From Phoronis australis (Eukaryota; Animalia; Phoronida), in NCBI GenBank assembly GCA_002633005.1, contig NMRA01000087.1, positions 821,990 to 885,989 of the forward strand: a stretch of DNA of 64,000 nt, read 5' to 3'. Every line of letters begins with the position of its first letter. Position 1 is the stretch's first letter. The notes below the pieces were generated by a model, which saw only the letters and a list, made by a program, of their open reading frames with translations, was not told the DNA's origin and ran no database searches. Made by a program: the position numbers and the translations under genes. Positions 998 through 3,900 of this stretch are shown here, piece after piece.

Positions 998-3900
998 ATT
1001 CGGAGGTGGATCTCGAGGTGGTCGCGATGGAGGCCGTGGTGGCGGCGGATCGCGCTTCAGTAGTGGTGGCGGCGGGGGCTATGGGGGCGGATCTCGGGGA
1101 GGATTTGGCAGTGGAGGATTTGGAGGGGGTGGCTTTGGTGGCAAGAACAAAAACAGTCAACCTGGTGAGAACCTGCGCAAGCCAAAGTGGGACCTATCAA
1201 AATTGATTCCGTTTGAGAAGAACTTCTACAGGGAACACCCCAATGTTTCCAGGAGGTCACAGGTGATTGCTTTATTACATGGCTTATATATGTAAATGGG
1301 TGTATGTTGATAGTCTTCTCAGTAGTTGATTCATATTATTAAAAAAATTTTGCCTATTAAATTTGTAGTTGAACACATGATATAGTTATGGCGTTGTTGG
1401 CTCGCTGATGTCCGAGTGTTCCTAGCGTCGTCATTACTAGCAGTGACCTTGTCATTGCCAGTCTTGTCTCTTTATAATCGCGACGGTATCAGTGCGATTG
1501 AGTTGCTGATGGCATTGTTCCTGTTGTCAACGTATTCGGCGTTGTCTTGGTCGTCAGGCGAGGGAGTTCTTTCTCCAATATTTCCTTCCCTGCTTTGACC
1601 TTGACACCTGTTATTTGGTTTGTGTGGAAAGCTTTGACAGCCAGTACCACCATGCTGTTTTGAGTTCTCAAGAAAAACACCGTAGTGTTCTTTCAAACGG
1701 ATGAGAATGGTTTGATGCAGTGGGTGACACTTTAGAAGTTACTTTACATTTTGAATCTTTTTCAGGCTGAGATCGAACAATTTTATGCAGAGAGGCAGAT
1801 CACTGTAACTGGCAAAGTGCCAAAGCCTATTTTGCGATTTGACGAAGCCAACTTTCCTGGTAAGATTTGTATTTATAATTCAGTTGAGATTATCATTCTG
1901 TCTGCTAACTGATTTGTTGTAGTTTACAGCACAAACATGTTACTCGAATGCGGATTGAAGAACAGACTTCCAGTTTGTATAATAGCCGTTGTTTCTTCCT
2001 ACCTGTTTTCCAGACTATGTACAGAACACGCTAAATCGCCAGGGTTGGGACGCACCAACGGCCATCCAGGCTATGGGATGGCCAGCTGCCCTCTCAGGGC
2101 ACGACTTTGTGGGCATCGCGCAGACAGGCTCAGGGAAAACGTTGTCAGTAAGTGTGTCCTGCAACCTTTATTAACCGCTGACTTCAATTGTGTTGGCTTT
2201 TGTTTCAGATTACGTACAGCGCACTGTGACACGACAGGCGTGGTCTGAGCCGACACCAATCCAGTCCTGTGGCTGGCCCATCGCCTTGTCTGGCAGAGAC
2301 ATGGTCGGCATAGCGCAGACAGGCTCTGGGAAAACGCTGGCCGTAAGTCGGAACTGCTTGCTCAGTTTCCGCTACAAGCGTGTTCAGTACAATCCTAACC
2401 TGAACTGGGTGTCTGTCACTGTTTGCACTTCATTAGTGTCAGCTGACTTGTGCTTGCTAATATTTCCACTGCGTTGACATCCTGTTTCCTGTGTCAGCCA
2501 TGTGCACCTTTCAGGCTGATGTCAGTTGTGCTCTATGTATGTGTTTTAGGGCTAGTTTTTGGCATTGAATTGTTGGAGTCTTAAAGACTTTTTTGAGGTT
2601 GCATCTGGTTTGAAGAGAAATACAATACGTTCAACTATTCAGAAAAATGAAGCGTCCCAGGCTAGGTTCGTTTTCAACTTCTTGTGACAAAGTTTGGTCA
2701 CATGACTTGCGATGAATTCCAAGACAAACCATCAGTGACAGTTGAATTAATTCAAAAGGAAGTGCTGTTTTTTAATCTGAATTCTTGACTATATTTTGAA
2801 AATTTAGAAACCTCAAAATGCCAGTGTTGGTGAAGAAAATGTTTTTTAACACGCTATTTTGACTTGGGATGACTGAAATAGAAAATTGTGCAGTCTTGAC
2901 ATTTTGCATTTGGTAAGCTCACATGCTTAGTGATCTTTTCTCTTGCTTATTTGCTTTTAACACCACTTATTCTGCATGGGAGGGTTTCCTTTTTGAGTTT
3001 TTCTTTGCAATGTACATGTTCCATTTTATTATTGAAGTTGAAGTGAAATGTTTCTACTGACCACACGGCTAGTTGGGTACAAGTGCGGGATTCTCGGTGC
3101 CTCGATTTCGGGACCACATATCAGACCCCATCGCCATATTAGAGATATTTAAAATTAAGTGGAAATATCATTGAAGCCCAAAATGATCTTCCAAGGATTA
3201 AAATTTTAAAAAATCCCTTCAAGGTTAGAATCACTTATGCAAAATGTTTGGTGGTCATGGAGGATTTTTTCTCCTACCAATTCACCCTCTCGGAAAGCTC
3301 AGGCACCTTTCTCTTCGGGATAGTTAGGGCCCTGAAACGATAATGCCAGTGGGCAAATTAACAAAAGTTGAAATGCCCACTGCAGTGTTCTCCACAGTAC
3401 AACTCCCAAACTCTTCACAAATTTTTAGAGTTCAATTTTAGTAGTGAACACTGTCCATTCCACAAACTCTACACTGGAGATAATTATGTACCCTTCAAAT
3501 GTGTACACTAAACTGGTGTGACCTACTTTTCAGTGACACCTGTTGTCCAGTTGAAGAAGTGCTAATTTTAGCCAGTAGGTTTCAATCAAAATCAAAATTA
3601 TCTTTAATTAAGCATAATCAAAATGACCCTTCACAGATTTAAATGCAAAATTTTAAGGTTAGAATGACAAAGTAGACTAGTTATTCACTAAGCTAGCTAG
3701 TTGACTCTATGAAGCATTTTCATCAGATTTTCTTGGCAATAATGCACAACAGTTATTTGTCACAACAATATATATAGTGTTAACTGCTTCTTAATGAAGT
3801 GAACTTTAGTTGATATTGGCAAAATCAGGCTCTGCTCTGATGGTGAAAGCTGAATTACCTTGCCAGCCAAAGTTTTAAACCTGGCGTTGCAATTTTTAAA

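Follow-up and report, generated by a model that had tools for sequence, protein, structure and literature searches.

Mutually exclusive splicing of tandem homologous exons is an already known splicing type. In the part of the human catalogue that was available (PMC8373072), OGDH 4a/4b, PKM, and SNAP25 have homologous exons of the same length, of which one enters each mRNA and which break the reading frame if both or none are used, and ion channels are cited there as families with convergent exon duplication. The accessible portion of a study of vertebrate splicing (PMC7969005) places the threshold for steric exclusion at a donor-to-branch distance of ~50 nt, and the available text of another paper (PMC2948006) describes DDX5/17 as acting generally in the regulation of splicing and of RNA structure. 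In the window (the whole 64,000-nt stretch of DNA that we analyzed), we found a DDX5/17-type gene that shares with OGDH, PKM, and SNAP25 a pair of homologous exons of equal length, A and B, one per mRNA, with loss of frame when both or neither are included. A first-pass annotation had proposed this arrangement and had suggested that it was undescribed in the family. On the side of novelty, a literature search, limited to sources other than subscription journals and prediction databases of exclusive exons, found no published case in the DDX5/17 family among the papers listed, and the supplementary table of the human catalogue (PMC8373072) held no DDX, DHX, EIF4A, or helicase entry, with the controls PKM, OGDH, and SNAP25 present. 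Against it, an equivalent isoform pair is already present in the public gene annotations of two oysters.

The gene lies on the + strand, and our model of it begins at 998, downstream of the true first exon and start codon. The model opens with an upstream coding exon for an RGG-rich N-terminus (998..1262), placed by its open frame and splice sites and by loose read ends before 1763 that match its 3' end. The common upstream exon of 94 nt (1766..1859) is followed by exon A (2014..2147), which encodes the Q motif W-D-A-P-T-A-I-Q and motif I, and by exon B (2209..2342), which encodes the Q motif W-S-E-P-T-P-I-Q and motif I; both are supported by splice sites and RNA joints. Between them is a 61-nt spacer (2148..2208) with the donor of A, candidate branch adenines at 2174 and 2181, and the pyrimidine tract and acceptor of B. 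The common downstream exon of 66 nt (4598..4663) is followed by exons modeled from splice sites and open frame at 5136-5277, 5580-5740, 6074-6246, 6533-6705, 7021-7080, 8716-8952, and 9255-9812, which are predicted to encode motifs Ia to VI and the C-terminus. Past the 4598 exon, read support consists of the 4663>5136 joint (loose ends), and the later joints are predicted. With either A or B, the spliced frame from 998 to 9812 is open over 686 codons and runs to a stop codon that closes the last exon.

Both spliced frames contain motifs Q, I, Ia, Ib, II (DEAD), III, IV, V, and VI in order, as in DEAD-box helicases of SF2. PF00270 scored above its cutoff for both exon peptides and PF00271 for 8718-8951, and the top four PDB sequences for both exons were human DDX5 (two entries), human DDX17, and yeast Dbp2. 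The closest solved and named relatives thus place the gene in the DDX5/DDX17/Dbp2 subfamily, with core identity of up to 79%. Judged by its sequence, this is a spliced animal gene for a DDX5/DDX17/Dbp2-type helicase, with predicted ATPase and unwinding activity. An Rfam scan of window positions 1-10500 gave no match. The modeled intron 7081-8715, directly after motif V, is the second-longest of the gene; we take an intron at this place to be conserved, and presumably autoregulatory, in yeast DBP2 and human DDX5. In and around the gene, we also saw a 20-nt unit repeated in tandem about four times at 883-967, directly upstream of the exon at 998, and an 18-nt inverted repeat at 3378-3395 and 3927-3985, 572 nt apart. 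Reads from other loci heap on both strands at ~3930-3980, as they might over a repeated or small mobile element. An apparent proline-rich coding exon of a convergent neighbor gene lies on the minus strand at ~12700-13230.

Exons A and B are homologous and in tandem, each 134 nt long and of the same phase, with AG acceptors and GTAAGT donors, and these lengths and positions agree with those first reported. They differ at 46 of 134 bases (34% divergence). Of 44 whole codons, 17 match exactly, 14 carry silent differences, and 13 specify another residue; since the split first codon encodes Asp in both, 13 of 45 residues differ, with the motif residues kept as had been claimed. The comparison of A with B gave pS of 0.67, pN of 0.22 (Fisher P = 4.5e-6), and dN/dS of ~0.15, a rough figure because silent sites are near saturation. 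By these measures the duplication is old and constrained, in line with the original view of an old duplication under selection. The expected loss of frame was likewise found in the gene model: inclusion of both exons would lead to a stop at 2227 and skipping of both to a stop at 5584, each far upstream of the last junction.

Four RNA runs were mapped onto 1700-4750, namely, three raw stranded runs from one study (X2, X3, and X4), of which ~18% each was sampled, and a set of contigs from another (X1), with a joint threshold of 3 reads from 2 starts and 1%. All four joints of A and B to the common flanking exons, the ones proposed as a check, were present in all three raw runs: 1859>2014 with 49, 36, and 7 reads in X2, X3, and X4, respectively; 2147>4598 with 55, 40, and 6; 1859>2209 with 56, 61, and 165; and 2342>4598 with 47, 62, and 116. 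Neither the A-to-B joint (2147>2209) nor the skipping joint (1859>4598) reached the threshold in any of the four runs, as mutual exclusion had predicted. Because each exon joins the same two flanks and no A-to-B or skipping joint is listed, the mutual exclusivity of A and B is real. The share of exon A among joint reads was 50%, 38%, and 4% in X2, X3, and X4, so that B is the major form in X3 and X4; the X1 contigs show B alone, which establishes the presence of B and not the absence of A. X2 and X4 differ in A share, with P = 1e-17 when reads are counted and P = 6e-8 when distinct starts are; X3 and X4 differ too, and X2 versus X3 gave P = 0.2. SNP alleles are shared by X2 and X3 and distinct in X4, so tissue, condition, and individual are confounded in this comparison and the 4% could be genetic. 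The silent SNP at 2102 occurs with both alleles in exon A reads (43/85 and 26/60), and A and B are therefore not alleles of one another, as had been maintained. In X2 and X3, sense-strand depth across 2414-4555 was mostly 4-17x, compared with ~3x in the intron before A, and it was lower in X4; this may mean that the intron downstream of the cassette is spliced out slowly.

On balance, we lean toward a reading in which the gene makes two full-length helicase mRNAs, with A or with B, in shares that depend on the sample, and in which the predicted proteins make the same ATP contacts and are likely fine-tuned by 13 nearby residues. Under this reading, transcripts would pass through A or B between flanks common to both, and the differing residues would likely tune ATPase coupling, stability, or partner binding. 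Joining of A to B would be blocked sterically, with the branch point of B falling within 40 nt of the donor of A, and any product with both exons or with neither would meet an early stop and be degraded. With less assurance, we suggest that exon choice could be regulated, perhaps by pairing of 2377-2391 over the start of A, which would favor B, or over the donor of B. The duplication itself likely arose in this animal's own lineage, apart from the one in oysters.

A first alternative, which we think unlikely though it survives best, is that the two isoforms are functionally near equivalent, that both exons are kept only since each is used so often that damage to it would do harm, and that the shifts in ratio are genetic or incidental. 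We assembled relatives of the exon peptide from 451 proteins, which gave 222 distinct ungapped peptides and, after collapse at ≤4 differences, 121 relatives. The 13 changed columns are the variable ones in this set (mean entropy of 2.15 versus 0.58 bits; P = 2e-5), the number of A/B differences is close to the median distance between relatives (14), and the relatives contain 12 of the 13 residues of A and 12 of the 13 of B, with Met20 and Cys20 absent among the residues listed. These values, and the fact that the X4 individual differs from that of X2 and X3, are what near equivalence would predict. It accounts less well for a tenfold difference in A share among runs of one study, for the repeated gain of swaps by bivalves at this exon and its neighbor (see below), and for the conservation of such swaps and their enrichment in proteomics evidence according to the available part of PMC8373072. 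If the isoforms do prove equivalent, the pair becomes an ordinary but well-supported annotation.

A second question is how A and B exclude each other. The candidate branch sites TTAAC (2171-2175) and GCTGAC (2177-2182) are in the spacer where the first-pass annotation had put them, with adenines 2174 and 2181 at spacer bases 27 and 34. Apart from the final AG, all spacer adenines lie at positions 3-40 from the A donor; every candidate branch adenine is therefore within 40 nt, below the ~50 nt given in the available text of PMC7969005. Because the branch point of B must fall within 40 nt of the A donor, we infer that the spacer is too short for the spliceosome to join A to B. Of the earlier proposal, the short donor-to-branch geometry stands, and the blocking itself is a deduction from it; nonsense-mediated decay would equally hide transcripts with both exons. 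Three metagenome loci (L074, L048, and L081) have introns of 54, 60, and 63 nt after the equivalent exon, so for some animals a length of 61 nt would suffice.

These short introns are one reason to consider that exclusion acts mainly through decay of frameshifted transcripts with both or neither exon, or through competing RNA pairing, and not through spacer length. The stops at 2227 and 5584, far upstream of the last junction, fit the decay route, and an element predicted to form competing pairs is present in the intron after exon B. This element (2377..2391) is complementary to the 5' end of exon A (2018..2032) at 14 of 15 positions, all Watson-Crick pairs, with a predicted energy of -21.3 kcal/mol versus -11.9 for the matching part of B. 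Shuffled sequences equaled the 14/15 match in 3/300, 2/100, and 5/100 cases, depending on the region compared (P = 0.01 to 0.05), in a test that was post hoc, made after the match was seen. In nine distinct folding windows, the helix had a probability near 1 in five and ~0.5 in two, and it was not favored in the remaining two, where 2377-2391 pairs instead with the B donor region (2336-2344). Taken over its full length, the region showed no more stable folding than shuffled sequence (z = -1.5). On these folding models, 2377-2391 is a candidate regulator of exon choice. As the main cause of exclusion, we hold decay or pairing to be rather improbable: unspliced RNA was sampled, as seen from the sense-strand intron reads, yet the A-to-B joint had fewer than 3 reads beside 700 standard joint reads, and none of the spacer adenines lies more than 40 nt from the donor. 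Spacer geometry is, in our view, the simplest explanation, to which decay of the frameshifted forms and the predicted helix may contribute. Within 250 nt after exon B (2343-2592), we also counted six YGCY and two UGUGU motifs, candidate MBNL- and CELF-type sites.

A scan of proteins for block swaps, covering the members of 30 protein clusters, had enough context in 212 of 508 proteins and returned six pairs, three of them same-gene pairs with a block swap; P0134/P0237, P0200/P0223, and P0289/P0290 were set aside as coming from different species or from records with other differences. In Crassostrea virginica (XP_022315715.1/XP_022315716.1) and in Ostrea edulis (XP_056017827.1/XP_048758723.1), two proteins of the same gene and the same length differ at 9 residues, all in this exon. 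The oyster differences start at the split codon, and each pair has one Pro-type and one non-Pro-type (Ser) Q motif. The Mercenaria mercenaria gene LOC123564505 has protein models X1 and X2 (P0241/P0103) of the same length with 13 differences, all in the exon equivalent to 1766-1859, and this clam likely swaps the exon upstream of the Q-motif exon. Exon structure in the oysters and the clam is deduced from the protein pairs. The multi-isoform clusters of mussels, limpets, and Gigantopelta showed no swap.

The window gene and, judging from the protein pairs, the oysters duplicate the same exon, and both could go back to a single ancient duplication, with loss in most lineages and homogenization by conversion in oysters. 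A tree built from the core minus the alternative exon (38 rows; Mactra, without motif VI, left out) groups the window gene with bivalves and Capitella (89/92, unstarred), which would fit a single origin; by this placement, the animal is likely a lophotrochozoan. In the free 44-column tree A and B are not sisters, A being a long branch, and A shares Gly10 (2 of 3 rows) and a residue other than Pro at position 16 with the oyster Ser type. We regard a single origin as improbable on the remaining evidence. In the 44-column tree (36 rows), the five oyster rows fall on one side of a branch (90/83, unstarred); forcing A or B together with an oyster type gave AU P values of 0.030 and 0.038, whereas forcing A with B gave 0.40 and was not rejected. 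Thr19-Val20-Ser21, Val24, and Ala43-Gly44 occur in both copies of the oysters, and Gln3 and Thr5, found in few relatives (4% and 12%), in both copies of the window; the lack of swaps in the mussel, limpet, and Gigantopelta clusters also speaks against an ancestral pair. From these alignments and trees, the window and oyster duplications are likely of separate origin.

Searches for the exon in other animals gave no close relative. Exon A as a query returned six matches, the best at 79%, and a search of representatives returned at best 83% across a 35-residue part; the four multi-stretch matches in the latter proved to be unrelated repeated models and not exon pairs. A pattern search of metagenomes, which covered 51 of 64 parts, required Leu after GKT, so oyster-type genes, with Ala at that place, are undetectable by it. 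It found 115 loci with the donor of this exon; 42 of them, with 28 distinct peptide ends, reach across both flanking exons, and none of these 42 has a second copy of the exon. Seven of the spanning loci (L013, L025, L034, L038, L086, L092, and L106) carry a more distant peptide, probably of another DEAD-box subfamily, perhaps akin to DDX43/53. The peptide types among the metagenome loci were considered as exon clusters and rejected, because each has its own flanking exons and the variants are thus whole-gene paralogues. In two loci, L070 and L075, near-identical copies of the upstream exon precede the motif I donor by ~1440-1520 and ~2890-2990 nt. The nearer one has kept its donor but is missing its first codons and its acceptor, as would be expected of a recent duplication that was incomplete. 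L019 and L063 are two complete DDX5/17-like paralogues in tandem on one contig, 24 kb apart, and the insect database models P0010 and P0011 apparently fuse such tandem neighbors into one protein.

The first-pass annotation had read the two exons as alternative ATP-binding modules that splicing would switch; in its strong form, this would mean isoforms whose affinity or specificity for nucleotide differs clearly. A and B do differ at Q-motif positions 12, 13, and 16, at residue 10 before the stacking Trp, and at residue 44 after the P-loop. Position 16 is Ala in the PTAIQ of human DDX5, as in A, and Pro in the PTPIQ of human DDX17, as in B, and the oyster pairs have Pro versus Ser there. In the Prp28 structure, as given in the available text of PMC4227776, adenine is contacted by Phe194, the main chain of Ser196, Thr198, and Gln201, and the accessible part of a DEAD-domain comparison (PMC2948006) lists a stacking aromatic, Thr, Gln, and one main-chain carbonyl. 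On the exon peptide, the Prp28 residues map to Trp11, the main chain of residue 13, Thr15, and Gln18. Trp11, Thr15, Gln18, and AQTGSGKT are the same in A and B, so that, within what these partial sources describe, the adenine and phosphate side-chain contacts are unchanged; residue 13 differs, but its mapped contact is through the main chain. The parallel of A with DDX5 and of B with DDX17 carries no weight, because position 16 is Pro in one and not in the other in 1093 of 2381 (46%) equally distant pairs of relatives, and no covariation was seen between positions 16 and 44 (P = 0.36). Since the contact side chains and AQTGSGKT are identical and the changed columns are variable ones, the comparison favors tuning over a swapped pocket; the functional switch, as first put, is overstated, and we think it very improbable. 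That A and B are an assembly artifact, or two alleles set in tandem, can be discounted almost entirely: no DNA run or long read in the data crosses both exons, and nothing else is in its favor, whereas the two diverge at 34% of bases with silent sites near saturation, SNPs in the exons are few and, in 5 of the 5 checked, silent, each of the two is spliced to the same flanks, and exon A reads contain both alleles at 2102. The A/B feature is genuine and expressed.

Beyond the reading that we prefer, we put forward tentatively, and with appreciable doubt, a wider one, in which the ATP-pocket exons of DDX5/17 would be a repeated target of duplication in lophotrochozoans (in this animal, in oysters, and, at the neighboring exon, in a clam), and in which, having evolved several times, a tissue-regulated switch, set by an intronic RNA element, would yield two kinetically distinct helicases. 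If this were true, one gene would do by splicing what other lineages did through whole-gene duplication, and the switch would be set by intronic RNA pairing over the start of exon A or the donor of exon B. Natural isoforms that differ by only 13 residues around the Q motif and P-loop offer a ready pair for probing the variable Q-motif positions. The likely independent gains in oysters and the clam would put a core enzyme among the small number of families whose exons duplicated convergently, and the oyster pair opens regulation by tissue, temperature, and stress to existing public RNA data.

Among known systems, the locus is nearest in geometry to OGDH 4a/4b as described in the accessible part of PMC7969005: its candidate branch adenines lie 27-40 nt from the upstream donor, below ~50 nt as in OGDH. 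By the same partial source, the OGDH branch points are distant, in a longer intron, and mapped, whereas the spacer here is 61 nt and the branch adenines are candidates. In the available text of a survey of exclusive exons (bioRxiv 10.1101/292813), changes fall beside a functional site, as they do here, and unlike the OGDH, PKM, and SNAP25 pairs of the human catalogue, the exon pair here encodes two motifs of a DEAD-box enzyme, the Q motif and Walker A. The downstream intronic element with two predicted competing partners resembles the docking-site and selector systems of Drosophila serpent and Dscam, as far as the accessible portion of PMC4691838 describes them; unlike there, one arm of the predicted helix is inside exon A and would mask it. 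The oyster DDX5/Dbp2 pairs swap the same exon, starting at the split codon, with a Pro versus non-Pro Q motif, but they differ at 9 residues and not 13 and likely derive from a separate duplication. Finally, vertebrate DDX5/DDX17 and yeast Dbp2 are the best solved-structure matches of both exons, and DDX5 and DDX17 show the same PTAIQ versus PTPIQ difference; in vertebrates, that pair is a whole-gene duplication with differences along the entire protein, in contrast to the swap of a single exon found here.
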